A DNA stretch of 64,000 nucleotides, taken from positions 1 to 64,000 of IMG/VR virus record IMGVR_UViG_3300008108_000011; one strand, given 5' to 3'. The notes under the pieces are model-generated. The model worked only from the letters and a program-made list of their open reading frames with translations, was not told the origin of the DNA and did no database searches. The stretch is from a virus. Each line of letters begins with the position of its first letter. Position 1 is the first letter of the stretch. The position numbers and the translations under genes were made by a program. Positions 41,968 to 59,745 of the stretch are shown here, piece by piece.

Positions 41968-44622
41968 ATGTTGCTACCCGAATTAAATTTACCAGTAGGT
42001 TTTGCTGGCAAAGATGGTTTCTATTGGTGGATAGGTCAGATCGAAACAGATGTAGACAAAAAGTTCTCCAATAGATATAAAGTAAGAATTGTTGGGCAGC
42101 ATGTTAAGAGTTGCACTGCTGTTTCCGTTGAGGATTTACCTTGGGCGGTAGTTATGCTGCCTGTAACTGCTCCTTCATCGGAAGGTAATAGTTCATATCA
42201 TCCAGCAAGATTACAGAAAGGAGATTGGGTAGTAGGTTTCTTTTTAGATGGTGCTGAAGGTCAACACCCTGTTATCATGGGTAGTTTCCAGAAGGTAACC
42301 AAGTCAACAACTAATACATCATTATCAAATAATAATTCTACTGCAGAGTGTCTGGCATTCACAAGATATGTTCCAGATACTAATCCTAAAATGACTGTTC
42401 CAGAAGGCAGTCAGGATGCAACTGCTAGACCAGGAATTAAAAACGGAGAAGGATCTGGATCATCAACCATTTTAAATGCTACAAATGATCAGCAATCTGG
42501 AACTAATCCACATGGAAGATATGCATGTGTTTTGATTGCAGATCCTACATGTGAAGATACATCATCATCTCAATCTAAATTTGAGCAAACCCTATCAGAA
42601 TTTTTTGGAGCAGTTTCTAAAAATGGTGGGCAGTTAGGAACTCAGATGTTGAGCAGTGTCACTGGAAAACTCTACGATTATACTGGTGCTGCTGGTGGAT
42701 ATATTAGAAGAGTATTTGGATTAGCGAGAACTTATATTAAAGCTGGAAAGTTTCAACTGCTTGCTTTGATAAAGAAGGGAGTGCAAACTTTAATATCATT
42801 CTGTTTAGGAATACCTATCCCAACATCAAATCCTAAAGATGGCAAAGCAGTTAAATTAAAAAATCAAGGTATATTAAGTAAACTATTCCAGTGGTTGAAT
42901 GAACAACTCGGATTGATTAATTGTGCCATTGCAGGATTAGAAGATAGACTTCTAGATTTTTTAACAAACTTAATTTATGGTTTACTTACGGAAGTTGTAT
43001 CTGCTGCAACTTGTAAGATAGAACAGATTGTATCTCAAATTATTAATGAGATTGAAAGTTTTCTTACCGACGCAATAAGTGCAATTCTAGGACCTCTACA
43101 AGCTATCTTAGGAATTATTGCTAGCCCACTTAATATCTTGGGAGCAATTCTACAATACATATTCACACTGTTTGGTATCTCCTGCACAGGACCAGATAAA
43201 AAATGTAAGAAACCAGAACAGTCTCAGTTTTGCACTGGAGCTGCTAATAATAAGAAACCAGGGGAAGATGATTTCGCAGCACTAGATAAATTAATTGCTG
43301 ATGTTGCTGCAGGTGGTCAAGCAGATTTACAAACAAGTTGCACAGATTACACTACATTGCCTTGCCCAGCAGTCACAACAGCAAATGTATACGGCGGAGA
43401 ACCAGGAGACGGTTCTGGTGATCCAGAAACACCACCGCCAGATGTAGAAGATCCTTTCGATAATTTCTTTGATTCATTTAATCCGCCAACTGATGACGGT
43501 AATAGAGATGGATCAGATGATATTGACGAAGAGGTTGATGCGATACCAGTTAATGCGGCAGTTAATAGCACAGTTGGTTTAAGATTAACTAGCAACTCAA
43601 GGTATAGAATTGCATTAGCACAAAGAAGTGATTATACATGGAGGGGAACTTTAAACATCAACTTATCATCTACTTCTTCTGAAGTTAGAACGCAAGATAG
43701 ATACGAAGTTGATGTCGTTTCAGTTATACCACAGACAGAGACTAATATTATAACATATTCATTGACTGCTGACAAGACAAGAGTTAGACAAAGTGAAACA
43801 ATTTCATTTACATTAAGATTATTAAGTGGATCTGTTCCAGATGGAACAGTATTTAATTATTTTATGTTTGGTTTTATTCAAGCATCTGATTTTGCTAATG
43901 GAATAAACACAGGAAGAATGACAATGATTGACGGTGTTGCTACTGCAAACATAACAATCTCTTCACAAATAAGTATAGCAGATGAAGAAGAAGTGCTATT
44001 CAGTGTGACAGAAGCTGGTTTGTCTAGGCAGTTTATCATCTACAATCAGAATCCCGTAGTAACTACACCAACAGAACCACCTAGATCATTTGTTCCTCCC
44101 ACTTTAGGAATACCTGAAGTTGATGGGGAGGGTAGGATCATATACATACCTATCGTTGACCCAGGAGATCCATATGTAAGACCTCCATTTATTAATATAG
44201 CAGGAACTGGTAGTGGTGCTTCTGCTACTGCACTTTTAGATGATAGTGGTAGGTTGACGAAGATAAAGATAGAAAGACCTGGAAGGAATTATGTTCCAAA
44301 CAAATCTAACAAAACTAGTTGTGTAATAGATGGGTTTGTTGTCATTAGACCTGGATCTGGATACACATCAGAACCAACTGTAACTGTAAATGGAGAGCAA
44401 GGAATTGCCAGAGCAATTATAAGAGATGGATTTGTAGTTGATCTTGAAGTAATAAATAAGACGAAAACCTATGAAGATTTCCCTGCTGTCAGAGTGTTTG
44501 GTGGTGGTGGATCAGGAACCAGAGTTATTTCGTCGCTCTCTTGTTTAGAAAGAGAAACATACGAAGAGTTTGCATTATCTGTTGCTCCATCTGGAGAAGC
44601 ACAAGTAATCGATTGCCCATAA
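41968..44622 (+). CDS. 5: gp5-like baseplate hub N-terminal (OB-fold) protein with accessory domains
   Basis: FYWWIGQ.E...YKVRI.G.H...LPWA...GDWVVGFFLDG...P.IMG; no T4-lysozyme domain seen. Confidence 0.8.
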   Translation: MLLPELNLPVGFAGKDGFYWWIGQIETDVDKKFSNRYKVRIVGQHVKSCTAVSVEDLPWAVVMLPVTAPSSEGNSSYHPARLQKGDWVVGFFLDGAEGQHPVIMGSFQKVTKSTTNTSLSNNNSTAECLAFTRYVPDTNPKMTVPEGSQDATARPGIKNGEGSGSSTILNATNDQQSGTNPHGRYACVLIADPTCEDTSSSQSKFEQTLSEFFGAVSKNGGQLGTQMLSSVTGKLYDYTGAAGGYIRRVFGLARTYIKAGKFQLLALIKKGVQTLISFCLGIPIPTSNPKDGKAVKLKNQGILSKLFQWLNEQLGLINCAIAGLEDRLLDFLTNLIYGLLTEVVSAATCKIEQIVSQIINEIESFLTDAISAILGPLQAILGIIASPLNILGAILQYIFTLFGISCTGPDKKCKKPEQSQFCTGAANNKKPGEDDFAALDKLIADVAAGGQADLQTSCTDYTTLPCPAVTTANVYGGEPGDGSGDPETPPPDVEDPFDNFFDSFNPPTDDGNRDGSDDIDEEVDAIPVNAAVNSTVGLRLTSNSRYRIALAQRSDYTWRGTLNINLSSTSSEVRTQDRYEVDVVSVIPQTETNIITYSLTADKTRVRQSETISFTLRLLSGSVPDGTVFNYFMFGFIQASDFANGINTGRMTMIDGVATANITISSQISIADEEEVLFSVTEAGLSRQFIIYNQNPVVTTPTEPPRSFVPPTLGIPEVDGEGRIIYIPIVDPGDPYVRPPFINIAGTGSGASATALLDDSGRLTKIKIERPGRNYVPNKSNKTSCVIDGFVVIRPGSGYTSEPTVTVNGEQGIARAIIRDGFVVDLEVINKTKTYEDFPAVRVFGGGGSGTRVISSLSCLERETYEEFALSVAPSGEAQVIDCP

Positions 44623-46297: not shown

Positions 46298-46486
46298 ATG
46301 AATCTCCAAAATCCTTCTGAACCAGCTCTTGACAAGATTACGGTTGACCTCTATAATAAGAAGGTAATCATCCGAGGTGAACATGGAACGACTCTTACCT
46401 TTCGATGTGCCACAATTAACGAGTTAGTTGAATTAAAGGAAAAATGTGGTAAACTGTTGAAGACAGATAACTTCATTTATCGCTGA
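46298..46486 (+). CDS. hypothetical protein
   Basis: 62-aa ORF after sigma70 promoter TTGACA-17-TAAACT at 46239. Confidence 0.55.
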   Translation: MNLQNPSEPALDKITVDLYNKKVIIRGEHGTTLTFRCATINELVELKEKCGKLLKTDNFIYR

Positions 46487-46559
46487 GCTCCTTTAGCAAT
46501 CTGGCGAATGCACCGAACTCATAATTCGGCTAAGGTGGGTTCGATCCCCTCAAGGAGCA
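46487..46559 (+). tRNA. tRNA-Ile2(CAT) (lysidine type) or Met
   Basis: Cloverleaf, CCGAA-CTCATAA-TTCGG, A73; resembles cyanobacterial/plastid Ile-CAU. Confidence 0.8.
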
Positions 46560-46560
46560 C

Positions 46561-46589
46561 TTGACAGTCATTACGGCACCTGCTATAAT
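46561..46589 (+). promoter_or_regulatory. sigma70-type promoter (tRNA-Leu / cpeT unit)
   Basis: TTGACA-17nt-TATAAT. Confidence 0.8.
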
Positions 46590-46603
46590 ACTGTCATCAT
46601 CAC

Positions 46604-46687
46604 GGGGCGGTGGTGGAATCGGTAGACACACCAGACTTAAAATCTGTTGGGGGCAACCCCGTGGGAGTTCAAGTCTCCCTCGCCCTA
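46604..46687 (+). tRNA. tRNA-Leu(TAA), intron-less
   Basis: Cloverleaf with variable arm, loop CT-TAA-AA. Confidence 0.9.
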
Positions 46688-46719: not shown

Positions 46720-46986
46720 ATGAAATACACATTATCACAAGCATATGTCTTCTACATGGGAGAAGTTGTGCGAATGTATTTCATACAAAATCTTCCATAT
46801 ACGTTTGATGAGTTACCTCAAATAATCCAAGATCATCCTTCTGTTCAAACAGAAGCACTTAGTCATCGTGATTATGATGATGAAGATCTTTACAGAGTTT
46901 CAAATTATCTTATAATGGAAGAAATGCATCCTTTGATGTTTGACTTAGAAATCGAAAATCCTGAATTGTTACCTAAAGATGATTGA
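46720..46986 (+). CDS. conserved cyanophage hypothetical protein coupled to cpeT
   Basis: VRMYFIQ..PYTFDELP; overlaps the cpeT start. Confidence 0.75.
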   Translation: MKYTLSQAYVFYMGEVVRMYFIQNLPYTFDELPQIIQDHPSVQTEALSHRDYDDEDLYRVSNYLIMEEMHPLMFDLEIENPELLPKDD

Positions 46987-47452
46987 CAAATTTTGTGAAT
47001 ATTTTGAAGGAACATTTGAGAATAAATTGCAAGCAATGTCTTATCCGACACAGTTTGCTATGATTGAACTGATTCACGAAAAAATCGATGAAAATCGTTT
47101 TCGTTGTATTCAACGTTATTATGTTGATAAAAACGAATATCGTAGAACAGTTATTGAGGTCATTCCGCAAGAAACTTCAATTCTAGTCAAAAATTATAAA
47201 GAAAAAGATGAGTTGACTTATCTTTCTGGGTGTGATATAATGTTCGAGCAGATAGGTGATGAATTTCACGGCAAAAATCTTTGTAAAACCTGCTTTGTCT
47301 CCTGGTCGGGAAAAGAAACCTATCTACAAACACAAAGTATTCTCGGAAACGGTTACTATCATGTAATTGATAAGGGATACGATATAAATACCGACGAACA
47401 TATTTGGGGTAGCTTTCACGGGCAATTCCAGTTCGTCAAATCGCCCTTGTAG
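46979..47452 (+). CDS. cpeT: T-type phycobiliprotein lyase (CpeT/CpcT)
   Basis: F.G.F.N..QA...P..FA.I...YR...GCD..F...F.G....C...YL....YHVID.GY......WGS..G.F.F. Confidence 0.88.
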   Translation: MIDKFCEYFEGTFENKLQAMSYPTQFAMIELIHEKIDENRFRCIQRYYVDKNEYRRTVIEVIPQETSILVKNYKEKDELTYLSGCDIMFEQIGDEFHGKNLCKTCFVSWSGKETYLQTQSILGNGYYHVIDKGYDINTDEHIWGSFHGQFQFVKSPL

Positions 47453-47514
47453 CTCAGTGGTAGAGCAGCGGTTTTGTAAACCGCTGGTCGTCTGTTCGAA
47501 TCAGATCGGGGGCT
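47443..47514 (+). tRNA. tRNA-Thr(TGT)
   Basis: Cloverleaf, loop TT-TGT-AA; overlaps the cpeT stop. Confidence 0.93.
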
Positions 47515-47535
47515 CTCCGTGTGAAGGAAGTGATA

Positions 47536-47559
47536 CCTGAGGTTCGCCTCAGGTTTTTT
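47536..47559 (+). terminator. intrinsic terminator
   Basis: CCTGAG-GTTCGC-CTCAGG-T6. Confidence 0.8.
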
Positions 47560-47561
47560 CT

Positions 47562-47569
47562 TATAAATA
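47562..47569 (+). promoter_or_regulatory. T4-type late promoter of the giant structural gene
   Basis: TATAAATA, about 40 nt before ATG 47608. Confidence 0.8.
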
Positions 47570-47607
47570 ACTCAGAAGAAATCTCCATACTACGGGTTAC
47601 TGAGAAG

Positions 47608-50600
47608 ATGCCATTAACAAGATTAGATAATCTTATTTCTAGTAAGACTGGTAAATATCTTTATGTTTCACCTGACGACTTTAATGCTACAGATGCCTTA
47701 GATAACAGAGGTAATTCTCCTCTAAGACCATTTGTTAGTATTCAAAGAGCATTTTTAGAAGCGGCAAGATTCTCGTATCTACCTAATGTAGATAATGACA
47801 GGTTTGACCAGTTTACAATCATGCTGTCGCCTGGCAATCACTATATTGATAACCGCCCTGGTGTGGAAGATGTTTCTACTCTTCCAATTTTTCAATTTAA
47901 TCAGGCAACACAAGAGTGGGAAGCAAATACTAATGTAAGCTTCGATCTCTCAGACCCAGATAATATTCTCTACAAGTTCAATGGTCGTGATGGTGGCGCA
48001 ACCATTCCTAGAGGAACTTCTCTTGTTGGAACAGATCTTCGCAGAACACAAGTTCGTGCTTTATATGTTCCAGATCCTGCTGATCCAGATGTTCCTCGCA
48101 CAGCTCTCTTTAATGTAACGGGTGGATGCTATTTCTGGCAGTTTACCATTCTAGATGGTGATTTAGAAGCAAGTTCGCCATTATATAATGTTGGATCTCC
48201 TGTTGGTGTTGGTAAAGTATACACGCAACCTGGCAGCACTACGAATTTAGCAATTCCTGAATTCTCTCACCACAAAATGACAAACTTTGTGTTTGCCGAC
48301 AGAGAGGATCTAGGTTTACTTTACAGAAAGATTGCTCGTGTATTCAGTGATTATCAACCAGCAATTGATGACGTATATGTAGAAGGTTCAAATACTCCTG
48401 TTACCGATTCTTGGTTTAGCACCACAACCTACCAGATTGGTGATAGGGTTCTTTATGATGGAAATGCTTATATAGCTAGTGCTGTATCCACAAATATTGC
48501 TCCTGATGCAGATGAAACAAAGTGGTCTCGTCTTGTAATTCGTGGTCGTGAATTTGATTTCAGGGTTCAAGAAAATAGAATCGTTGGTCCTCTTTCTGAC
48601 GCTGTTAGATTAGATGAGGTAACAATTTTAGATTCTAACCCCGCAGGAACAGTTACTGTTAAAGTAAGAACAAAAATTAATCATGGTTTCTTCCCTGGTC
48701 AATACGTTGCAATTTCCAATAATGGATTGAATACTACACTCAATGGTGTATTCAAAGTAACTGCTATCAGTCAAACTGATCCAAAAGAATTCGAATATAA
48801 AGTTGCAACCACAGCAACTGGTTTAGGATTGATTAGCGGAACTACTTACACTGCAGTATCTTCTCCATCACTTGACACTAACGCTACCGTACAGGCGGAG
48901 GTAGATAGCGTAGAATCAGCATCTCCATACGTCTTCAACGTTTCGATTCGTTCGACATGGGGTATTTGCGGTATTTGGGCTGATGGTCGCAAGGCGACTG
49001 GTTTCAAATCCATGGTTATCGCCCAGTATACTGGTGTTTCGCTACAGAAAGACGACAGAGCATTCATTCGTTACGACGAATTCAGCAACACATGGAACCA
49101 GGCACCACTAACTGATGCGTTTGCTACAACTCCTTATCACATCAAGGGAGATGCATATTGGAAGGATGATTGGAGAAACTTCCACGTTCGTGCTTCAGAT
49201 GACTCCTTCATTCAGAACGTTTCGATCTTCGCGGTAGGTTTTGCTGATCACTTCCTGCTTGAGTCAGGTGGTGACATGTCTATCACCAACTCGAACTCAA
49301 ACTTTGGTAACACTTCGATGCACTCGAAGGGATACAAAGGTTTTGCATTCTCGCAAGATAAAGGCGGATACATCACTCATATTGTTCCACCAAAATCTCT
49401 TTCTACTCTAAAAAATATTAAGCAACAGTATTATGTTCTGGATGCTCAATTAACTAGAGCTACTTCTAATCAAAATAGATTATATTTTGGATCTGATGAT
49501 GCTCGTAGCGCAGAAGATCGCCCAGCAGCATCGATTGGTGGGTATAGAATTGGTGCAAGAAGAAATGAAAAATTATTTGTAAAACTAGATACTTCTGCTG
49601 CTAAGCAAGCAGAACTTTCTCCATCTGGGTTTAAGAGATGGGTTTCTTCTCTATCCACAATTTCTCCAACTGGTTCTAGATCTGTAGAAGATATAAGTCG
49701 TTTGTATGTAACTAGCACTGTTGGATTTGCTTCAAATGATTTTGTTAAAGTTGATAACGAATTTTTCAGAATTACTGCAGTTAATCCTTCTAGTTTAAAT
49801 GTAGTAAGAGCACAATTGTCATCTGCAGCATCTGATCATGTTAATGCATCTATTGTTACAAAATATATTCAAAACGCTGTAGCGACTACTGTTCTTAATG
49901 AAGAAGTTGATGCTACTGAGACAGTATTTGACGTTCAGAGCACTACTGGTCTTGCTCCAAATATGTTTGCTAGTATTACTAATAGTCAAACATCTATTAA
50001 TGAAACAGTTAGAATTGTAACTATTGAGGGTGCTAGTCAAATTACAGTTCAGAGGGGTCAGTTAGGAACTATTGCTGTTGCTCAACCACAGACATCTTTA
50101 GTTACTCTAACAACACTTTCAAATACATATTCTCCTGCTTCTCCTAGTGTAACAACAACTCTCACTGAGAGATATCCAAGAATTACTCCTGCATCAAATG
50201 CATCAGAAAGAGATTATAATCTTGCACAAGATGCTGCGAATCTAATTGATTCAAATAAAACATTCATTCAAGCAGAAGCATTTGGATATGTTTTACAGAA
50301 ATATCCATATCTTCAAAATATTTCTTATGTAAACCCAAATATCACTGCGGAAACTGGTAGATATCGTGATGCCAGCAATTTGATTAAAGCAAATCGCCAA
50401 GAAATTATTGATTATGCTTTCACTCAAATGCAAGTTGCATTCCCTTCATTCGTTGTTCCAAACAATGAAAATGATAAGTGTAAGCGTGATATTGGATATA
50501 TTGTAGATGCAATCGCAAACGATTTATATGATGGTGGAAATGCAAGCATCATTGAGGCAACCAAAGCATATTTTGACAATAACGGATCTTTAATTACAAA

Positions 50601-53600
50601 TGGTGTTTTGGGTGAGCAAACTCAATCGGTATTTGCTTTCAATAGAGCAAGAGATTGGGCTAAGAAAGCAATTTCAAACCTTCTAGGAAATACTTCTCTA
50701 CTTGATGTAATTAGTATCACTTCATCTGGAACAACTGTCACCGTAACGACAGGAAATCCACATAATTTAGAAGCAGGTAATAAAGTAACAGTTGGCGGTG
50801 CAACTCAAACTGCATATAATGGAAAAGTAACTGTTCTTGCTTCTGGATTAACTGCTACCCAATTTAGATACACTGCATTATCTGCTCCTTCTGCGTCACC
50901 AGCTACTGGTGCATATTATGTTTCGACTGTAACTATTGATCCATCTAATGATTCTATTGTTGCTGGTAGATATAAGGATGCGAGCAACTTAGTTAAATCA
51001 AATCGTCAAGAAATTATTGATAGAGCTGCAGCTAAAGTTGCTATTGATTTTCCTGATTTTTATTATCCAGGTGATAGTCAATCAAATGCAACTTCTCGTT
51101 TTAAGGATTCGTATCGTCTAATTCAACAAAACAGACAAGAAATTATTGATAGAGCAGCTGCCGAAATCGCTGTTCAGCATCCAGATTTTTATTATCCAAA
51201 TGATGCTCAAACTACAAGCACATCGAGATATAAAGATGCTTATCGTTTGATCCAATTAAATAGACAAGAAATTATTAATGGAGCTTATGCTCAAATTGCT
51301 ATTGATTATCCTGGATTTACAAATCCAAATCCAACAAAGTGTCAAAGAGACATTGGATATTTTATTGATGCAATTTCTCTTGATATTTCAATTGGATCTG
51401 GTAATGTTTATTCGCGCAAGTTCACTCAGCAGTATTTTACTGTTAGTGGAGCTCCAATTAGTGATGGATTACTAGGAGAAGAAACACAATCGATTGCTGC
51501 ATTTAATAAAGCTCGTGATTTGATGAAATCGGCAATCACAAATCAATTAACGGTAAAAGATTTAACTGTTACTGTAGATCCTATTACTGGTTCTAATACA
51601 AATGTAAATTCTTGTTCTAATGTTCAACTTGCAATTACTAACTTAAGCGCAATTGTTACAAATGCTATTGGTGCTGGTAGTATTTCTGGTTTACCACCTG
51701 AAAATGTAGGAACTGTTCCTGCTGGAGAAACAAAATGCAAGAGAGATATTGGCATGTTTATTGATGCTATTTCTCTTGATATTGTTCAGGGAGGTGGTAA
51801 TGTTTATGCGCGTAAATTCATTCAACAGTATTTTAATCAGGCAGGAACTGCTTGGATAACTGGCGGATTACAAGGTGAAGAAGCTCAGTCTGTAACTGCA
51901 TTTAACAAAGCAAGAGATATAATGAAACTTGCTGTAGCAAACCAGTTATATGTAAAAGATCTTTCTATTACTGCTGATCCTGCTCCTGGTTCTAATTATG
52001 GAACTTCTGGATCTAATACTGATAATAATTTAAATCCTGCTCTATGTTCAGATGTTCAAAATGCAATTACAACTTTAACTTCTATTGTTACTGCTAGAGT
52101 AACTGCTGGAAATCTTACTGGATTACCTGCAGAAACACAAGCAACCATTCCAAATGGAGAAGCTAAGTGTAAGCGCGACATTGGTTATATTGTAGATTCT
52201 ATTGCCCAAGATTTATTCTGGGGTGGAAATGAATTTACTGTTGGTGCAGTAAGAGAATATTTTACTCTAGCAGGTGTTCCTATTTCTAATGGATTAGTTA
52301 ATGAAGAGAGTCAAACAGTAGTTGCTTTTAATGCTGCAAAAGATGTTGTTAAAAAAGCAGTTACAAATCAACTTTATTCTAAAAATTTAAATCTTTCTTA
52401 TGGTCCAGCAAATGCTGGTGGATCGGGTGGAAATGTAACATACAATGCATCTGGTAATGGTGCTACTTGCGTAGATGTTCAGACCACAGTAGAAAACTTA
52501 TTTGCAATTGCTACTAGTGTTGTAGCGTCTGGAACTTTAGCAAATCTTCCTCCAGTAACTAATGGATCTTACGATTGTGCTAATGTTAGAAATAGTATAG
52601 ATACATTAACTGCAATTTTAACAACTGCGTTAGCATCAGGAAATCTATCTTCTTTACCTGAAGAGAATCCAGGATCATGGAGCACAGTTAGTGAGAGTAG
52701 TAAGTGTAAGCGTGATATTGGATATATTGTAGAGGCAGTTACTTCTGATCTACGTTTGGGTGGAAATGAAAATACTATCAACGCAGCAGAAGCATACTAT
52801 ACAGCTGTTCCTCTCAACACTGACACTGTAGACGGAAGACAAGATGGATTTACTCTAGATTATATTGAAAATGAGAGACCAGAAACTCTAGATGCATACA
52901 ACTATGTAAGAAATTTGGCTATCTCAGCAATGAGAAACCACAATACTTATATCAATAATGCTTCCACTACTTTAAATTCTCCAATCGTTACAGTTCCAAG
53001 CACAATTGGTCTTGCTATTGGAATGCGTGTTAGAAGTGTCAATGCTATTCCAACAGGTCCTTCTGATACAGTATCATTTACTTCTACTATTCCAGATACA
53101 GCATACATCAAAAAAATTGGTGATGGTCAAAATGGATTGGCATCGAATCAAATAGAATTAGGAAGACTAGGAAGCAGATTTGATGATGGAGAAACTGTAA
53201 GTGCTCAGGGAACATCGTCTACTGTAAAATTATACGTTGAATTAAATCAAGGATCTTGGGCAACAACAATTGCTCCTTCAACCGATAGCGCAGTTATTCA
53301 AGATTATAATTACACGGCTGCTGGCGATCCTTCAACTGGATCTCCAGGAGGAGAGTGCGCTACTGTTGCTAATTCAATTGTTAATTATTTCAATATTATT
53401 TCAACAATTATCAACAATGGTGTTGGTGTTGTTCCTAGAGTTGCTTCTTCTCTTAACACAGCATCCCTCGCTCAAAGAGGATCTCTATTCACTTTAACTG
53501 AATATGATAGCAATGGAAATCCAACATCAAACCCCCACCAGTTAGAAACTGGAACTCCAGTAAGACTTGTTCCATCTCCTAGACCAGGAACTAATCCAGA

Positions 53601-56600
53601 CAAGAGACTGGTTAGACTTCCAAAAGGATTTGATACAAATACTATTTACTATGTAATTGCTCCTGGCAGAAGAACAGATCCTTTTGATTATTCTAATTCT
53701 ATCGGATTTAATGGCGCAAATCAGCAAACATTGATGCTTGCTACTAGTGAAGAGAATGCTGCCGCAGGTATTTACATTTATTCTTCCGAGACTGATAGTG
53801 TAGATCCAGATGTAAATATTGATGTTTATCAGTATGTTCTAGATCTTAAGTATGATCTACATCAATATGAAACTAAAATTGCTAATAATAGCAGCACCGA
53901 ATTTGAAACCACTAGACCACATATTTTTGACAAACCAGCTGATGGAGTTGAACCTCAGTTAGTGTTCTTTAGAGTTGGAAGTGATATTATTGGATCATCG
54001 TTGCCTACTCTATCTTCTAATTTTGGTGGAACTGTTATTTCAGAAAAGCAACAGTATTATGTTCGTTATGTAAGTTCCAGAAGATTTACGATTCACCAAA
54101 CATTTACTGATGCTAGAGATAATATTAATCCTGTAACTTTCCAACCAGGAAGCACCGCAGTATTCTACGCATTTGCTAGCAAGAGAAGATCTCCTCTCAA
54201 ATATGATCCTGTTGTAGGTGGTGCAAATGATGGTTGCTGGTATTTAAACACCTTAACTGCAGGAAATGAAATTGTTCCTAGATTGAAGTTTAGTGATTAT
54301 GCAGGAAGAATCAGAACAACTGATACTTACTTTGAACGTATTGAAGATAATAGAACGGAAGATGATCGTGTATATAGATTCCGTTATGTAATTCCTAAGA
54401 ATCTTAAAACCGTTCGTGATCCTCTACGTGGATTTGTGTTTAAGATTAGAACAGATGAAAAGAGAAGATTGCTCCCCCAGAAAATATTACTGAAACCAAC
54501 TGCATCTGGTTCTTCACTTGCCACAATTAATGCTCCTGTCACTGGTGAAAGACTAGGTTTAACTGTATCTGAACTATACAGTCAAACTGGTAAAGATTCT
54601 ACTTACGATCCAGGTCCTCAGGGTAATCCTAAGAGAATCGAAACAGATTCTAAGATTTCTTTCACAGTTCAATCTGCCAGAAAGAGAACTATTCAAAATA
54701 GAGATTATTTAGAATTAACTGTATTTGATATTGGTGTAGATGCCGAAGCATATAAGACTAAACTCTTCACAACGGTTAAAATTTCTGCTCCTGAGGGTGG
54801 AGATGGATCCTTTATTGAAAGTATTCCAAATTCTAATAACACAAATAAAATTACTTGGGATGGTAATAGCAAGGGAACTGCATATGTTCACGCATATTTT
54901 TCTTATGAAAACGATTACTACATGATTCTTAAGGATCTCACTGGTAATTCTGAAATTAAGTATGATAGTAATACAGTTACTACCTTTACTCAAGGATCTG
55001 TAACTGCTACTTTACTTGATCAACCAAATGGCGGAAGATCTGACATTTCTAATTTCCTTTATGTTGTGGAAGGAGCAAACGTTTACACTATGACTCCTGG
55101 CGACACTTTAAATGATGATCAAGGAGTGTCGTATACAATTGCTGAAGTAGAAGATTCTTCTGAACTTGAAAGCACTTTCTACATTTTTGATATTGATACT
55201 ATCCGTAGAAGAATTGCTGGTCAACAAGATGGTGTGTATTATCTCACATGTTTACGTGGAGATATTAGACCTTTCCCAACTGGTTCTGGTGTTGGTGAAA
55301 ACTTCAGAAACTTCAGATTCTCTCAACCAGTATCTAAGTTATATCCAGAATTCTATAAGAACGACCCAGAATGGTATAAGGGAATAAGTGCAGCAACTGC
55401 CACGTTACTTGATCCACCACCAACAATTTCTGCGGCAGACAACTATATCCATGGTTTAGTTACGGTTAATGATTCCAAAGGATCTGTAACTAGAGAAACC
55501 GTTCTTGATTTTGTTGCTGATCCTGGAACAGGAAATTATACATATTCTGGAAATAATACAATTCAAGCTCAACCAGGATCAGCTTCTGCTGGATCTGAAG
55601 GCAGATTGATTCCTATTTCTGGCGATTCTCCATATCCAACAGAAGGAAAACTTTATATAGAACTTCGTAGACCATCTATTGCGCGTTCTGGCAACCATAC
55701 CTTTGAATACCTTGGTTTCGGTCCTGGTAACTACTCAACTGGTTTCCCTGCGCGTCAGGAAGTGGTCTTAACTGATGTTCAAGACTTCTATGCTCAAGCT
55801 AAGCGTGAAGACGCTGGTATCGTCTTCTACACGGGTCTGAACTCCAATGGTGACCTCTACATTGGTAATCGCAAGATCAATGCTATTACTGGTGAAGAAA
55901 CATTCCTAGAAAGAGCGGCATTAGTTGAATCTGAGGATGAAGGAGATAGTATTGGCAATCTTGTAACTACTTTTGATACTCCAGTTACATTTAATCAAAT
56001 CATCACAATTAATGGTGGTGATGGATCTGATGAAAGTTTCTTCAATTCTCCAGTTGTAATTAATAATGCAACTTCTTTCGGAACGGTAGAAAATTATCCT
56101 TCACTTAAGATTGTTACTGGAGAAGGAACTCCTGTTGGATTTGATCAGTATTTAGAATATAATACTGTTGGTCAAAGAACAGGTGATATCGTCATTCATC
56201 AAAACAGAATTACTGCAGCTGTATTTGATTTCAATCCAAGAGGAACACAAGATTATACTATTAGAACTTCCATATCAAATATCACTCCAGATTTTAACAA
56301 TACATTTGGGCAAACTACAGGATTTACTTCTCAAATTTTAGCAACTAATTTTGGAACTAGAGATCCGTTGAAGTCAGGTGATATGCTATTGAAGGGAGAT
56401 CAAACTTCCTTTACTGGATCGTTAGGTTGGATATATGCTAATGATTACATTGCTATAACTAACAGATCTGATGGTCAAACAACACCTCAAGTTGTAGGTA
56501 TTCAGGGTAATGCTACTGGAACATTTGCTAGAATTAACTGGAATACTGGTATTAATAATGGTTCTCTAAGTATTAATAGTTCTACTCAAATTAGAATTAC

Positions 56601-59600
56601 TAATGCTACTGGAACATTAGCAGTTACAAATGGTGTTTGGAATATTGTTCCAGGAAGTTTTAACGCTTCTAACAATTATATTGATGTTATTCTGAACTCT
56701 AATCTTTCTGTGTATCCAGTTAATCTTAATAATGGTAAAGGATACCCAGTTGATCAAGTAGCACAACCAAATATTGCAATCGCTCGTTCGTCTTCTCAAT
56801 TTAAGGAGTGGGGTGTTCTAGGTGCAGAAGCAATTAGAACAGAAACTTCTTCGATTGGAAATTACAAGTTAGGTATTAATACCGTTGCTCGTTCTCCACA
56901 TTCTGCATATCTGACAGCATTTGTTTCTCCAGAAACAACGCCAAGAGCAAATCTTGATGTTGTCGGTAATGCATTTATCAGTGGTAAGGCAATTAATTCT
57001 TATTTAACTGAGCAAACATCTACGAAGACAGAAACTAATTTAGACAATGCTTTGGTTGTTGGTGGCAATAGTTTGAGTCTAAATGGTCCTGCTACATTCC
57101 GTGTTCAGACAACGAATAATGGTAGAGTAGGAATTAATACTTCTCTAGTTGATGTCGTAAATCCATCCAACGTTCTTGATAGAAATTTTGTAGTTGTAGG
57201 TAATGCTAGAATTACTTCAGATTTTGAATTAACAGGTGACCTTCAAGTTAATGGTGGTGATTTAACTACAACTTCTCCATCTTTCAATTTATTAAATACT
57301 TCTTCTCCAGACATTTTAAACTTTGCTGGTGGTGCAGAAATATTTAATATTGGTCACACGACAACTGGAGCTCAAACAATTAATGTCGGCAATGCTGCTT
57401 CATCTAGTTATATTCAAGTTGGTAACGTTGCTACAGAATCTGTTTTCAGAATTCATAGAAATTCATTAAACGCAATTGTTGATATTGCTTCCGTTGCTGA
57501 TACTGTTGGTAATAGTTGTGAAGTTCAAATTGGCGGAGCATGGAACAATACTGCTAGCTTCACTGAAATACGCACCAGACAAACATTAATTGCTGGAGAA
57601 TTAGAATTTGGAACTAGGTATGCTTCTGGAACTAGTCAGTCTAGAATTTTCACTCAGACTAGAGTTCTGAATGCATTTGATGGTGATCAAACCAATACAG
57701 TTAATCTTGCTACTAATGCAACTACCTTCAACCTCGGATCTCTTGGTGGTAATACTACCATTAGAAATACTCTTAATGTTCTTGCAAGTGAAAACGTTAA
57801 TGGTAATATTAGACTGAATGGTGGATTAAATGCAGGTATTGTTGAAATTGTAAGAGGAAGATTCTCTACAACACCAGTCGCACACAACGTAGGAAATCTC
57901 GCAAACACCAACATTGATTATTATCAGTATAATACAACTGGTAGAATAATTGATACTCAAGGTGTTGCACAATGGGGAGGAACTTCGTTCTTGGTTGCTG
58001 GTGGTCAAATTGCTGGTATTGATACTATTACAAATACTGGCGGAACAAATAGAAATCCTGGAACATATAGTTTCATTCCAGCAACAGGTGGAACTGGAAC
58101 GGGTGCTACATTTACTATTAGCATTGCTAACGATAAAACTCTTAATATTGATATTGTTAGCCCTGGATCTGGATATACTGATAATGACCTATTAATAATT
58201 ACTGCTGCACAAATTGGTGGTGGAACTGGTGCTGGCAATCTTACATTCCAAGTAAATGGTGTAAATGCTGGTGGATCTAGCTATTATCTACCAATTTCTA
58301 CTCCTGGTGTGTTTGATTTCAGAGTTGGTGATCTTATTCTCATAGATCGTGGTGATGCAGCAACACCAGATAGTGTTGTTGTTTCTGGTGGTGGAAGCAT
58401 TACTGGATTAAGAAATCAAGCAAACAGTGAGATTGTTCGTGTTACTGGATTAACAAACTTAAGTAATCCAAATGATCCAGAAGGTTTCCGAGTTCAAGTT
58501 ATTCGTGGTCAGGAAGGAACACAGGTAAGAACAGATCACCCACAAGGTTGTGTGCTTGCTAAATTAATTAAACAAACAAATGCAAGTTATATTACAGGAT
58601 CTGATCTTAATAATGATGGAGTTTTAGATACACCTGTGACGGGTATTTCAAATTCCTCTGTCAATGTTAATATTGGTGTTGCTGAATTTGGTGGAGTTCT
58701 TACTACCAGAGACTTCTTGAGATTATCTGGTTCAGAAATCGTTGGTATTGCTAGAACGGTATCCACTGATATTCAAGTTCTTGAAGTTAACGATGGATCT
58801 TTAACACCCGCTACAGTATTCAAAGTAGAATCTACTACTGGTAATACAATTATTGGTGGTAATCTTGGGGTTGGAACTGGATTTAATAAATTTACAGTTA
58901 CTGGATCATCTGGAAACACTAATATTGCTGGAACATTAACAACAGAGAACACATTAACTATTAATGGATCTACTATTCCTAATACTCAATTCTTTACTAT
59001 TACTAACGGTGGTGCTACAGGAACTCCATTGAGAACTACATTCCAGATTGATACTGCGAATGGTAATGTTAGAATGAATGGTGGAAACATCAACATCTAT
59101 GGAACTGATGGAACAACACCTAGACTAACGTTTGTCAATTCTTCGGGTGACTTTACCACATATGGTTCTTTCTCTGCTCTTGGAACGGGTGCTAGCACTT
59201 TTGGTGGTGATATTGTTGCTGCAGGTGATTTAACAATTAATGGTGGTGATATCACTGTTAATTCTGGAGGTAATCCTATTTTTGAGGTAAATAGTAATGG
59301 TTCTATGCGTATTGCTGGAATCAATAATTACTTTACTCAAACGGGTGGTAGAAGATGGGAGTATGCCGATGGATTTGTCATTAATGCTTTGGCAAACGTT
59401 AATTATTTTGTTAATGCTACACAAAATACGCTATTTAAACTTCCTCAAAATGCTCTAATTGGTGATATGATTCGTATTATAGATATTGGTGGAAACTTAA
59501 ATTATAATTTAAGTTTGATTGTAAGAGCTCCTGACAACGTAAAAGTTCAGAACGCATCTGATAATACTGCAAGAAATATTGCTTCTGGTATTCCAGTTTC

Positions 59601-59745
59601 TGATTTTGTTGGATATAATGGTGGTGAAATGGTTGTTCAAACTCCATACGCTGCATTTGCACTAGTTTTTGCAGGATCTACAACTCCAGATGGCAACACT
59701 GCTGTTCCATCATCTATCGCTGGTTGGTATTTAATCGAAGTCTAA
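47608..59745 (+). CDS. giant virion structural / fibre-like protein (~4045 aa) containing five nested phycobiliprotein-like domains
   Basis: Late promoter; MPLTRLDNLIS...LYV N-terminus; beta-helix-like region; five KCxRDIG and five Cxx(V)xx(A/S/T)(I/V) repeats; C-terminal ...GDMIRIID...LIVRAP...GWYLIEV module seen on T4-like baseplate/fibre proteins. Confidence 0.85.
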   Translation: MPLTRLDNLISSKTGKYLYVSPDDFNATDALDNRGNSPLRPFVSIQRAFLEAARFSYLPNVDNDRFDQFTIMLSPGNHYIDNRPGVEDVSTLPIFQFNQATQEWEANTNVSFDLSDPDNILYKFNGRDGGATIPRGTSLVGTDLRRTQVRALYVPDPADPDVPRTALFNVTGGCYFWQFTILDGDLEASSPLYNVGSPVGVGKVYTQPGSTTNLAIPEFSHHKMTNFVFADREDLGLLYRKIARVFSDYQPAIDDVYVEGSNTPVTDSWFSTTTYQIGDRVLYDGNAYIASAVSTNIAPDADETKWSRLVIRGREFDFRVQENRIVGPLSDAVRLDEVTILDSNPAGTVTVKVRTKINHGFFPGQYVAISNNGLNTTLNGVFKVTAISQTDPKEFEYKVATTATGLGLISGTTYTAVSSPSLDTNATVQAEVDSVESASPYVFNVSIRSTWGICGIWADGRKATGFKSMVIAQYTGVSLQKDDRAFIRYDEFSNTWNQAPLTDAFATTPYHIKGDAYWKDDWRNFHVRASDDSFIQNVSIFAVGFADHFLLESGGDMSITNSNSNFGNTSMHSKGYKGFAFSQDKGGYITHIVPPKSLSTLKNIKQQYYVLDAQLTRATSNQNRLYFGSDDARSAEDRPAASIGGYRIGARRNEKLFVKLDTSAAKQAELSPSGFKRWVSSLSTISPTGSRSVEDISRLYVTSTVGFASNDFVKVDNEFFRITAVNPSSLNVVRAQLSSAASDHVNASIVTKYIQNAVATTVLNEEVDATETVFDVQSTTGLAPNMFASITNSQTSINETVRIVTIEGASQITVQRGQLGTIAVAQPQTSLVTLTTLSNTYSPASPSVTTTLTERYPRITPASNASERDYNLAQDAANLIDSNKTFIQAEAFGYVLQKYPYLQNISYVNPNITAETGRYRDASNLIKANRQEIIDYAFTQMQVAFPSFVVPNNENDKCKRDIGYIVDAIANDLYDGGNASIIEATKAYFDNNGSLITNGVLGEQTQSVFAFNRARDWAKKAISNLLGNTSLLDVISITSSGTTVTVTTGNPHNLEAGNKVTVGGATQTAYNGKVTVLASGLTATQFRYTALSAPSASPATGAYYVSTVTIDPSNDSIVAGRYKDASNLVKSNRQEIIDRAAAKVAIDFPDFYYPGDSQSNATSRFKDSYRLIQQNRQEIIDRAAAEIAVQHPDFYYPNDAQTTSTSRYKDAYRLIQLNRQEIINGAYAQIAIDYPGFTNPNPTKCQRDIGYFIDAISLDISIGSGNVYSRKFTQQYFTVSGAPISDGLLGEETQSIAAFNKARDLMKSAITNQLTVKDLTVTVDPITGSNTNVNSCSNVQLAITNLSAIVTNAIGAGSISGLPPENVGTVPAGETKCKRDIGMFIDAISLDIVQGGGNVYARKFIQQYFNQAGTAWITGGLQGEEAQSVTAFNKARDIMKLAVANQLYVKDLSITADPAPGSNYGTSGSNTDNNLNPALCSDVQNAITTLTSIVTARVTAGNLTGLPAETQATIPNGEAKCKRDIGYIVDSIAQDLFWGGNEFTVGAVREYFTLAGVPISNGLVNEESQTVVAFNAAKDVVKKAVTNQLYSKNLNLSYGPANAGGSGGNVTYNASGNGATCVDVQTTVENLFAIATSVVASGTLANLPPVTNGSYDCANVRNSIDTLTAILTTALASGNLSSLPEENPGSWSTVSESSKCKRDIGYIVEAVTSDLRLGGNENTINAAEAYYTAVPLNTDTVDGRQDGFTLDYIENERPETLDAYNYVRNLAISAMRNHNTYINNASTTLNSPIVTVPSTIGLAIGMRVRSVNAIPTGPSDTVSFTSTIPDTAYIKKIGDGQNGLASNQIELGRLGSRFDDGETVSAQGTSSTVKLYVELNQGSWATTIAPSTDSAVIQDYNYTAAGDPSTGSPGGECATVANSIVNYFNIISTIINNGVGVVPRVASSLNTASLAQRGSLFTLTEYDSNGNPTSNPHQLETGTPVRLVPSPRPGTNPDKRLVRLPKGFDTNTIYYVIAPGRRTDPFDYSNSIGFNGANQQTLMLATSEENAAAGIYIYSSETDSVDPDVNIDVYQYVLDLKYDLHQYETKIANNSSTEFETTRPHIFDKPADGVEPQLVFFRVGSDIIGSSLPTLSSNFGGTVISEKQQYYVRYVSSRRFTIHQTFTDARDNINPVTFQPGSTAVFYAFASKRRSPLKYDPVVGGANDGCWYLNTLTAGNEIVPRLKFSDYAGRIRTTDTYFERIEDNRTEDDRVYRFRYVIPKNLKTVRDPLRGFVFKIRTDEKRRLLPQKILLKPTASGSSLATINAPVTGERLGLTVSELYSQTGKDSTYDPGPQGNPKRIETDSKISFTVQSARKRTIQNRDYLELTVFDIGVDAEAYKTKLFTTVKISAPEGGDGSFIESIPNSNNTNKITWDGNSKGTAYVHAYFSYENDYYMILKDLTGNSEIKYDSNTVTTFTQGSVTATLLDQPNGGRSDISNFLYVVEGANVYTMTPGDTLNDDQGVSYTIAEVEDSSELESTFYIFDIDTIRRRIAGQQDGVYYLTCLRGDIRPFPTGSGVGENFRNFRFSQPVSKLYPEFYKNDPEWYKGISAATATLLDPPPTISAADNYIHGLVTVNDSKGSVTRETVLDFVADPGTGNYTYSGNNTIQAQPGSASAGSEGRLIPISGDSPYPTEGKLYIELRRPSIARSGNHTFEYLGFGPGNYSTGFPARQEVVLTDVQDFYAQAKREDAGIVFYTGLNSNGDLYIGNRKINAITGEETFLERAALVESEDEGDSIGNLVTTFDTPVTFNQIITINGGDGSDESFFNSPVVINNATSFGTVENYPSLKIVTGEGTPVGFDQYLEYNTVGQRTGDIVIHQNRITAAVFDFNPRGTQDYTIRTSISNITPDFNNTFGQTTGFTSQILATNFGTRDPLKSGDMLLKGDQTSFTGSLGWIYANDYIAITNRSDGQTTPQVVGIQGNATGTFARINWNTGINNGSLSINSSTQIRITNATGTLAVTNGVWNIVPGSFNASNNYIDVILNSNLSVYPVNLNNGKGYPVDQVAQPNIAIARSSSQFKEWGVLGAEAIRTETSSIGNYKLGINTVARSPHSAYLTAFVSPETTPRANLDVVGNAFISGKAINSYLTEQTSTKTETNLDNALVVGGNSLSLNGPATFRVQTTNNGRVGINTSLVDVVNPSNVLDRNFVVVGNARITSDFELTGDLQVNGGDLTTTSPSFNLLNTSSPDILNFAGGAEIFNIGHTTTGAQTINVGNAASSSYIQVGNVATESVFRIHRNSLNAIVDIASVADTVGNSCEVQIGGAWNNTASFTEIRTRQTLIAGELEFGTRYASGTSQSRIFTQTRVLNAFDGDQTNTVNLATNATTFNLGSLGGNTTIRNTLNVLASENVNGNIRLNGGLNAGIVEIVRGRFSTTPVAHNVGNLANTNIDYYQYNTTGRIIDTQGVAQWGGTSFLVAGGQIAGIDTITNTGGTNRNPGTYSFIPATGGTGTGATFTISIANDKTLNIDIVSPGSGYTDNDLLIITAAQIGGGTGAGNLTFQVNGVNAGGSSYYLPISTPGVFDFRVGDLILIDRGDAATPDSVVVSGGGSITGLRNQANSEIVRVTGLTNLSNPNDPEGFRVQVIRGQEGTQVRTDHPQGCVLAKLIKQTNASYITGSDLNNDGVLDTPVTGISNSSVNVNIGVAEFGGVLTTRDFLRLSGSEIVGIARTVSTDIQVLEVNDGSLTPATVFKVESTTGNTIIGGNLGVGTGFNKFTVTGSSGNTNIAGTLTTENTLTINGSTIPNTQFFTITNGGATGTPLRTTFQIDTANGNVRMNGGNINIYGTDGTTPRLTFVNSSGDFTTYGSFSALGTGASTFGGDIVAAGDLTINGGDITVNSGGNPIFEVNSNGSMRIAGINNYFTQTGGRRWEYADGFVINALANVNYFVNATQNTLFKLPQNALIGDMIRIIDIGGNLNYNLSLIVRAPDNVKVQNASDNTARNIASGIPVSDFVGYNGGEMVVQTPYAAFALVFAGSTTPDGNTAVPSSIAGWYLIEV
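50221..53421 (+). repeat. five interleaved phycobiliprotein/globin-like repeats
   Basis: 5x (R)Y.DA..LI..N(R/K)..I...A...P; 5x KC.RDIG..(V/I)(D/E)(A/S)(I/V)..D...G.N; 5x C..V...(I/V)..(L/Y). Confidence 0.8.

Follow-up and report, generated by a model that had tools for sequence, protein, structure and literature searches.

Phycobiliprotein-like domains, probably nested, in a giant tail-fibre protein encoded beside cpeT in a T4-like cyanophage

The window, a stretch of 64,000 nucleotides, belongs to the complete 193-kb genome of a T4-like cyanophage, a virus of marine cyanobacteria. An open reading frame on the plus strand (47521..59745) encodes a giant tail-fibre or virion protein of 4074 aa, counted from GTG in the translated ORF list. 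The protein matched the PHROG families phrog_4527 'short tail fiber' (E 0) and phrog_529 'tail fiber' (E 5e-294). These alignments start only at aa 30, and translation therefore probably begins at the ATG at 47608. A T4-type late-promoter-like box, TATAAATA, is located 39 nt 5' of this ATG on the same strand (47562..47569). Six such boxes were observed in the window and 5.3 were expected, a count not above chance, so that the box at 47562 is suggestive by position alone. The giant protein contains 16 cysteines, ten of which fall inside a phycobiliprotein-like stretch of about 1 kb of amino acids.

Directly upstream of the fibre gene, on the same strand, is a cpeT gene (46979..47452) for a 157-aa homologue of T-type phycobilin lyases. 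A tRNA-Thr gene predicted by ARAGORN (47443..47515, plus strand) is positioned between the two genes and overlaps the last cpeT codons; tRNA genes flank cpeT in this genome, as in a mobile island. The cpeT product scored 64.8 bits against PF06206 (cut-off 21) and matched phrog_488 'CpeT-like antenna protein' with E 5e-39. In the PDB it resembles 5hi8, the phage CpeT of P-HM1 (E 1.1e-13), and CpcT (4o4o, E 2.5e-12), with which it shares aligned Y-R and D...W-G-S segments. In 2017, Gasper et al. reportedly found that phage CpeT binds bilin but shows no lyase activity towards the host phycoerythrin that they assayed. Genes for a bilin reductase, a haem oxygenase or an S-type lyase are absent from this genome, and the host would therefore have to supply everything but CpeT.

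The ten cysteines and five opening helices described in the sequence-only reading were all recovered in the translation of the 4074-aa ORF. First-site cysteines, in the context C-(K/Q)-R-D-I-G, are found at aa 987, 1274, 1406, 1550 and 1729 (nt 50479, 51340, 51736, 52168 and 52705), and second cysteines, in the context C-[SAV]-[NDT]-V, at aa 1365, 1509, 1650, 1686 and 1946 (nt 51613, 52045, 52468, 52576 and 53356). All elements are on the plus strand. The first opening helix, O0 (50221..50328), is an A/B-helix equivalent with its DAxxLIxxN motif at aa 904 and a weak A1-profile match at 50197–50319. It is followed by O1 (50359..50466; motif at aa 950), where PF00502 positions 33–85 match 50368–50508, and by core 1 with helices E, F' and G (50476..50706; K-C-K-R-D, Cys987). 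Opening helices O2, O3 and O4 come in succession (50968..51330; motifs at aa 1153, 1196 and 1239), each matching PF00502 at positions 33–69, 33–72 or 33–99. Core 2 (51337..51570; K-C-Q-R-D, Cys1274) forms the modelled copy together with O4. Next are a closing helix that opens with Cys1365 (51613..51696), taken as a helix H equivalent by analogy with the modelled closing helix, and core 3 (51733..51969; K-C-K-R-D, Cys1406), which is part of the second AlphaFold model. The closing helix that opens with Cys1509 (52045..52131) makes up residues 151–174 of that model, on helix H. Core 4 (52165..52395; K-C-K-R-D, Cys1550), aligned by phmmer to CpcA 66–114, precedes two closing helices, one opening with Cys1650 (52468..52554) and one with Cys1686 (52576..52662), the latter assigned from a bracket parse of the element order. 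Core 5 (52702..52956; K-C-K-R-D, Cys1729) and the last closing helix (53356..53445; G-E-C-A-T-V...I-V-N-Y-F, Cys1946) complete the series, and by eye the Cys1946 helix most resembles the G-D-C-S...Y-F segment at beta-155.

The element order and the second model fit nesting, and a nested reading is preferred for this reason; a tandem reading, with the five copies side by side, was dropped. These data fit an arrangement in which residues ~900–1975 hold five complete domains of the beta-subunit type, inserted one inside another. In each domain, an A/B helix opens the fold, an E-F'-G core follows and an H helix closes it; the N-terminal X helix is missing. Read in this way, the outermost domain has O0 as its N-terminal part, and the Cys1686 helix closes domain 1 (O1 and core 1).

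A megablast search of the region against the phage collection gave no match, and a search at the protein level was therefore needed. The whole giant protein matched PF00502 with E 1.2e-11 and 45.2 bits (cut-off 22.2), the match spanning only profile positions 33–99 of 155. Taken singly, the copy composed of O4 and core 2 scored 25.9 bits, and the other copies were below the cut-off or undetected. Profiles from 142 and 54 phage copies were compared with all PDB sequences, where the best 60 matches were all phycobiliproteins, with best E-values of 2e-5 and 1.3e-5; identity to the solved chains is only 10–19%. In these matches, the phage Cys, Arg and Asp align with Cys82/84-Arg-Asp, in agreement with the proposal made from the sequence that the first cysteine is of the bilin-binding Cys84/Arg86/Asp87 type. 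All five copies in the window read C-(K/Q)-R-D, which lines up with the C-x-R-D motif in CpcA and CpcB. The same domain unit occurs 339 times in 80 related viral contigs, and this recurrence, together with the PF00502 E-value, shows that the pattern is not due to chance. Like the phycobiliproteins, the phage domain occurs only in the cyanobacterial world. A domain-profile search of a very large database for free-standing relatives of 83–343 aa (E ≤ 10) returned 25 phage-like fragments and no true phycobiliprotein.

Structure prediction pointed in the same direction. The AlphaFold model of the O4 and core 2 copy has a pLDDT of 87.9, and the top 49 Foldseek matches of this model were all phycobiliproteins, with TM up to 0.73. 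Both Foldseek and VIA-align matched it to beta phycobiliproteins, consistent with the globin/phycobilin fold anticipated for the domains: VIA-align superposed model residues 1–128 on beta residues 19/32–156 with Z 13.0 and an rmsd of 2.2–3.5 Å over 115–123 residues. In the second model, of core 3 and its closing helix, residues 43–173 aligned to residues 74–172/177 of beta subunits (Z 9.7), and the predicted Cys1509 helix superposed on helix H. The PF00502 score, the PDB profile matches and the globin-like models thus sustain the claimed relationship to phycobiliproteins, and the domains are almost certainly true, distant homologues of these light-harvesting proteins, with their fold.

The position of the second cysteine comes from the models and is not seen in the sequence profiles. 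By offset, read from the ends of the aligned ranges, Cys1509 would correspond to beta-153 of phycocyanin or beta-158 of phycoerythrin. Neither of two sequence profiles compared with solved phycobiliproteins placed the second cysteine on beta-155: the profile from C-x-R-D to the next Cys helix aligned only helix E, and the full-domain profile matched the cysteine to a different residue towards the C terminus of R-phycoerythrin beta, in a tail of low confidence. We relied on the structural ranges because the sequence profiles had failed to place this residue. The earlier assignment of the second cysteine to the beta-155 type is accordingly backed by the modelled closing helix and its offset, and the sequence profiles disagree with it. 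On the model, the second cysteine probably opens the helix H equivalent, a site served by T-type lyases in beta subunits.

The predicted domain is similar to the phycobiliprotein beta subunits (CpcB, CpeB/MpeB and the cryptophyte beta chains) in its globin-like fold from residue ~19–32 to helix H, in its K/x-C-x-R-D at the 82/84 site and, as read from the aligned ranges, in a second cysteine that probably opens helix H. It differs in being nested and embedded in a 4074-aa fibre, whereas free subunits have 160–180 aa, and in its longer G-H loop. The model alignment starts at chain residue 19–32, and no sequence before the opening helix is able to form helix X, so that the alpha-beta contact known from the heterodimers would not be expected to form. 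In the profile alignments, the phage domain is also about eight residues shorter in the loop preceding the first cysteine. In beta subunits, this loop holds propionate-binding arginines.

Across 237 distinct copies with a mean column identity of 25%, the Cys is present in 98.7%, the Arg in 93% and the Asp in 99.6%. Of 174 intervals between motifs, 152 contain exactly one Cys, mostly 41–43 residues ahead of the following motif, a regularity that speaks for the conservation of the second cysteine. The C-x-R-D triad in phycobiliproteins serves the bilin, not the fold. Three copies inspected in P-SSM4, a phage that still has cpeT, contain no Cys, and several copies in P-HM2, Syn9, P-RSM4, P-SSM7 and S-ShM2 read C-x-D-D or C-K-T-D. 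The fold has therefore been retained in some family members that lack the canonical site.

The location of cpeT directly upstream of the fibre gene is new here and was absent from the sequence-only reading; it is the strongest circumstantial clue to pigment attachment. The sequence-only reading also did not include the missing X helix or the copies in other phages without the Cys or Arg. A cpeT gene is found just upstream on the same strand in 31 of about 38 related contigs showing at least 2 kb upstream, and it also adjoins the fibre gene in S-PM2, Syn1 and S-RSM4. In Syn9-like and P-HM phages, the two genes are 35–60 kb apart. Among 20 cyanophage genomes, 13 contain both the domain and cpeT, two the domain only, none cpeT only and five neither (one-sided Fisher p 0.0014, uncorrected for relatedness, in a small sample whose five 'neither' genomes may derive from no more than two or three independent lineages). 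Prediction of a complex between CpeT and a fibre domain gave a median ipSAE of 0.40 (best control 0.00), with at least 67% contact agreement between runs and a partner pLDDT of at least 83. Of 80 solved complexes, 58 came up to this mark, as did 2 of 110 mismatches, and scores of 0.60 or lower are more often wrong unless the guess is already likely, so the predicted complex lends weak support to the pairing. We propose the fibre domains as a substrate of the phage CpeT.

Adsorption of S-PM2, P-HM1 and P-HM2 needs light, whereas P-SSM2 adsorbs in the dark (PMC6628666). The domain is present in the former three phages and absent from P-SSM2, a bilin maker that yet has neither domain nor cpeT. 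Light-dependent adsorption has been attributed only to "host receptors and/or tail fibers" (PMC6628666), and the phage bilin genes pebS, pcyA, ho1 and cpeT have been taken to enhance or alter light harvesting by the host (PMC10452541, PMC2984593). Prochlorococcus has no phycobilisomes, yet its phages carry bilin genes (PMC2984593, PMC1079782). The main text of the P-HM2 transcriptome paper does not mention cpeT. Compared with bilin genes as auxiliary metabolic genes, the present case concerns the same organisms and the same pigment pathway, but cpeT may here serve a virion component, in a genome that has cpeT without synthesis genes.

Since both attachment sites seem to be kept and a lyase gene adjoins the fibre gene, the virus particle may carry pigment. 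The best explanation, which we hold tentatively and at somewhat less than even weight, is that the nested phycobiliprotein domains are loaded with bilin via CpeT and host lyases. Late in infection, the fibre domains would receive host-made bilin. The phage CpeT would act on the helix-H cysteine, and the cysteine that resembles beta-84 would acquire its bilin through a host S/U-type lyase or unaided. On a released virion, each chain of the fibre would in that case bear as many as ten bilins in thioether linkage. Whether at least one bilin is covalently bound to the virion protein we consider close to, and slightly short of, an even question. In the most speculative step, light would act on the pigment and change the fibre, and adsorption would be gated. 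Such light-gated adsorption through a fibre pigment seems unlikely to us, and the complete reading of the fibre as a bilin-bearing photoreceptor, loaded by CpeT and host lyases in a phage that adsorbs only in light, slightly more so.

Alternatively, the host fold may have been reused without any bilin, as a compact helical module that lends itself to insertion in fibres and baseplate proteins, which we regard as a real if rather doubtful possibility. The conserved Cys, Arg, Asp, Asn and Tyr would then maintain the fold or the packing of nested domains against one another, and cpeT would act on host phycobiliproteins or regulate bilin pools, as currently assumed. The domain is spread over 356 phage records and 1439 protein clusters, with up to 36 copies per protein among the cluster representatives, which has the look of a generic building block. 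The retention of Cys-less and C-x-D-D copies, the missing X helix, the shortened loop before the cysteine and the remoteness of cpeT from the fibre gene in many phages are in line with this, and the literature searched yielded no mention of cyanophage particles that are coloured or fluoresce. However, C-x-R-D is the best-conserved feature of the 237 copies, a second conserved cysteine is placed by the model at the other canonical site, and cpeT never occurred without the domain in the 20 genomes.

It is improbable that the paired cysteines are instead joined as disulfides, which would fasten the nested domains once they are released into oxidising seawater, with the resemblance to bilin sites being an ancestral leftover. 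A fibre protein does work outside the cell, and each unit has two conserved cysteines at a fixed spacing, as seen in the 152 intervals with a single Cys. If the model of the fold is right, however, the sites correspond to beta-84 and beta-155, which are tens of ångströms apart in phycobiliproteins, and the equally conserved Arg and Asp beside the first cysteine would be left unexplained. Least probable of all is a different ligand, such as a non-covalent bilin, another tetrapyrrole or a host surface component bound by a receptor-binding or docking module, which would suit the fibre context and the conserved pocket residues (but with a pre-Cys loop that differs from true phycobiliproteins) and hardly accounts for a near-invariant cysteine without covalent chemistry.

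An antenna fold with both sites apparently intact, in the adsorption apparatus and beside a lyase gene, provides one hypothesis for two puzzles and makes them testable with cultured phages: the light-only adsorption of some cyanomyoviruses, independent of host photosynthesis, and the purpose of phage cpeT and bilin genes, especially in Prochlorococcus phages. If the photoreceptor reading were true, it would account for the need of S-PM2, P-HM1 and P-HM2 for light in adsorption; phage cpeT, perhaps along with the pebS and ho1 of Prochlorococcus phages, would build the particle rather than boost host photosynthesis; and this would be the first pigmented, light-sensing virus particle. Even without pigment, a host photosynthetic antenna protein has been captured and multiplied as a nested virion building block. 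In the literature covered, which lay mostly outside the subscription journals, we found no account of a phage structural protein with a phycobiliprotein domain. The Pfam match itself is already in the databases, on proteins named "hypothetical".

Gene content indicates that the virus, whose record is complete (192,732 bp with direct terminal repeats), is one of the T4-like cyanomyoviruses. The giant fibre gene was located in the ORF list as an open frame of 4074 aa on the plus strand (47521..59745). A baseplate hub gene (41968-44622) lies upstream, and short-tail-fibre, tail-collar and structural protein genes follow on the 3' side. The translation matches PHROG tail fibre and short tail fibre families over its whole length. 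The ATG at 47608 is probably the real start, since these alignments only set in at residue 30 and 47562-47569 holds a TATAAATA box. Towards the N-terminus, a weak match to the carbohydrate-binding module CBM_5_12 (E 0.0079, below the cut-off) was seen at 48412-48480 (aa 298-320), and several homologues carry a precomputed PF02839 match.

The sequence-only reading had proposed a pigmented, phycobiliprotein-like virion fibre, and its claims of homology and of a globin-like fold were borne out by Pfam, by PDB profile searches and by predicted models. PF00502 matched the whole fibre protein with an E-value of 1.2e-11 (45.2 bits; cut-off 22.2). When single copies were searched, one scored above the cut-off (25.9 bits) and the others were weaker or undetected. 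Related loci were collected from viral contigs (n=80) and contained 339 copies of the domain unit. Profile A1, built from 142 diverse phage copies, was searched against all PDB sequences and had only phycobiliproteins among its best 60 matches (best E 2e-5). Profile A4, built from 54 contiguous complete domains, had 114 matches in the PDB at E ≤ 0.1, and all 60 listed were phycobiliproteins (best E 1.3e-5). Both profile and sequence alignments place the Cys of the phage copies on Cys82/84 of CpcA and CpcB, and their Arg and Asp on the corresponding Arg and Asp. One copy, modelled with AlphaFold (pLDDT 87.9, pTM 0.80), retrieved phycobiliproteins as all of the top 49 Foldseek hits, with TM up to 0.73. 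VIA-align superposed 115-123 of 134 residues (Z 13.0, rmsd 2.2-3.5 Å), matching model residues 1-128 to beta-subunit residues 19/32-156. In contrast to phycobiliproteins, the phage domain is without helix X and is missing approximately eight residues before the Cys. Based on these analyses, we consider it nearly certain that the domains are relatives of phycobiliproteins in homology and fold.

Re-location of the cysteines and opening helices in the fibre translation confirmed all of the coordinates previously assigned to them. Residues 987, 1274, 1406, 1550 and 1729 of the fibre ORF are the five C-(K/Q)-R-D-I-G cysteines, residues 1365, 1509, 1650, 1686 and 1946 are the five second cysteines, and the five DAxxLIxxN helices lie at aa 904, 950, 1153, 1196 and 1239. 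With O for the opening helix (A/B equivalent), EG for the core (helices E, F' and G) and H for the closing helix, the order along the fibre is O O EG O O O EG H EG H EG H H EG H. These elements, five of each kind, can be parsed as balanced brackets: O904[O950 EG987 {O1153(O1196<O1239 EG1274 H1365> EG1406 H1509) EG1550 H1650} H1686] EG1729 H1946. The parse, which uses element order alone, suggests that five complete domains are inserted into one another to a maximum depth of four, with either the B-E or the G-H loop as the point of insertion. One complete domain, with Cys1274 and Cys1365, is contiguous at 51190-51702. Two models fit the nested reading: O1239 plus EG1274 corresponds to beta 19-156 in one, and EG1406 plus H1509 to beta 74-177 in the other, where the Cys-helix ahead of core 3 stays unaligned. 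Small beta-rich modules of approximately 50-60 aa are also repeated in the fibre, at 48655-48801 (aa 379-427) and 50707-50967 (aa ~1063-1149). One such module, whose sole Pfam match is a weak one to E1_FCCH (E 0.0098), occupies part of the domain 1 G-H loop, before the nested domains.

The second model (preceding Cys-helix, core 3 and following Cys-helix; pLDDT 81.5) aligns through residues 43-173 on beta 74-172 of phycocyanin and 74-177 of phycoerythrin (Z 9.7), suggesting that the following Cys-helix is the equivalent of helix H. Judged from C-terminal range offsets rather than residue-by-residue alignment, Cys aa 1509 would correspond to phycocyanin beta-153 and phycoerythrin beta-158, the sites served by T-type lyases. 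The earlier placement of the second Cys at a beta-155-type site agrees with the structural range ends, but was not reproduced by sequence profiles of phage copies against solved phycobiliproteins.

Across 237 distinct copies the mean column identity is about 25%, and despite this the Cys is kept in 98.7%, the Arg in 93% and the Asp in 99.6%; conservation also exceeds 93% at five other positions (Asp, Asn, Tyr, Glu, Asn). Exactly one cysteine was found in 152 of 174 intervals between consecutive C-x-R-D motifs, mostly 41-43 residues ahead of the next motif and in the context C-A-N/D-V. All three copies read in P-SSM4 lack any cysteine, and several copies of P-HM2, Syn9, P-RSM4, P-SSM7 and S-ShM2 have C-x-D-D or C-K-T-D. 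The degenerate copies sit in giant proteins (~6000-7300 aa) of Syn9-like and Prochlorococcus phages. The domain family therefore has members both with and without the canonical site.

Upstream of the fibre gene, cpeT (46979..47452, plus strand) encodes a homologue of the T-type phycobilin lyase CpeT (PF06206, 64.8 bits, cut-off 21; PDB 5hi8, E 1e-13; CpcT 4o4o, E 2.5e-12) and ends 155 nt before the likely fibre start. The gene is found just upstream on the same strand in 37 of the 80 related contigs, and in 31 of the approximately 38 showing at least 2 kb upstream. We scanned 19 named complete cyanophage genomes and this genome with the domain profile and PF06206. Both were present in 13 (S-PM2, S-RSM4, Syn1, Syn9, Syn19, Syn33, S-SM1, S-SSM5, P-RSM4, P-SSM4, P-HM1, P-HM2 and this genome), the domain without cpeT in two (S-ShM2, P-SSM7), cpeT without the domain in none of the 20, and neither in five (P-SSM2, S-SM2, S-SSM7, S-CRM01, S-TIM5). 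The association has a one-sided Fisher p of 0.0014 (0.0018 after dropping one P-HM phage), uncorrected for shared ancestry. In S-PM2, Syn1 and S-RSM4, as here, cpeT adjoins a giant gene that carries the domain; the distance is 35-60 kb in Syn9-like and P-HM phages. Complex prediction for CpeT with one complete domain gave a median ipSAE of 0.40 (best control 0.00), contacts agreeing by at least 67% between runs and partner pLDDT of at least 83. Of 80 solved complexes, 58 reach the mark applied, as do 2 of 110 mismatched pairs, but a pass that scores no higher than 0.60 is wrong more often than not unless the pairing was likely beforehand; the prediction thus lends weak support to CpeT binding the fibre domain. 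S-type lyases act at the Cys-84-type site. In cluster C T4-like cyanophages, an S-type lyase (cpcV) is found in place of cpeT (PMC10665884).

That the fibre is pigmented is a sound, testable hypothesis, strengthened because the lyase gene adjoins the fibre gene, and we rate its chances at slightly below even. Against pigment are the lack of bilin reductase, haem oxygenase and S-type lyase genes in this genome, the degenerate copies elsewhere, the missing helix X and pre-Cys residues, and the pattern in P-SSM2, which carries bilin synthesis genes (PMC1079782) but in which the genome scan found no domain and no cpeT. Light is required, independently of host photosynthesis, for S-PM2, P-HM1 and P-HM2 to adsorb, whereas P-SSM2 adsorbs in the dark (PMC6628666). 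The genome scan found 13, 5, 5 and 0 domain copies, respectively. A sample of four phages is too small to establish a link between the domain and light-dependent adsorption, but the pattern can be tested. Light-gated adsorption via the fibre is speculative and, in our estimate, unlikely.

The domain was identified in 356 phage records, all from cyanophages. In a library of 1.84 billion proteins, 1439 cluster representatives contain it, with as many as 36 copies in a single protein. A literature check, made by full-text searches, found no paper describing the domain in a phage structural protein. PF00502 annotation is already in databases as a precomputed match on most public homologues, which despite this are named "hypothetical protein", "tail protein" or "putative short tail fibre". 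Outside the window, at 127258-128388 of the whole record, another large ORF (open frame of 2723 aa) holds two or three more copies.

In the interval that separates the baseplate genes from the fibre gene, cpeT is flanked by three tRNA genes: tRNA-Met (CAT) and tRNA-Leu (TAA) upstream at 46487-46687, and tRNA-Thr (TGT) between cpeT and the fibre gene at 47443-47515, overlapping the last codons of cpeT. An 88-aa ORF of no known function at 46720-46986 matches phrog_4134 (E 3e-42); it shares 8 nt with the beginning of cpeT, and this overlap suggests possible translational coupling. By eye, a frame of about 60 codons that begins with ATG can be read at 46299-46487, within the 560-nt gap preceding the tRNAs.
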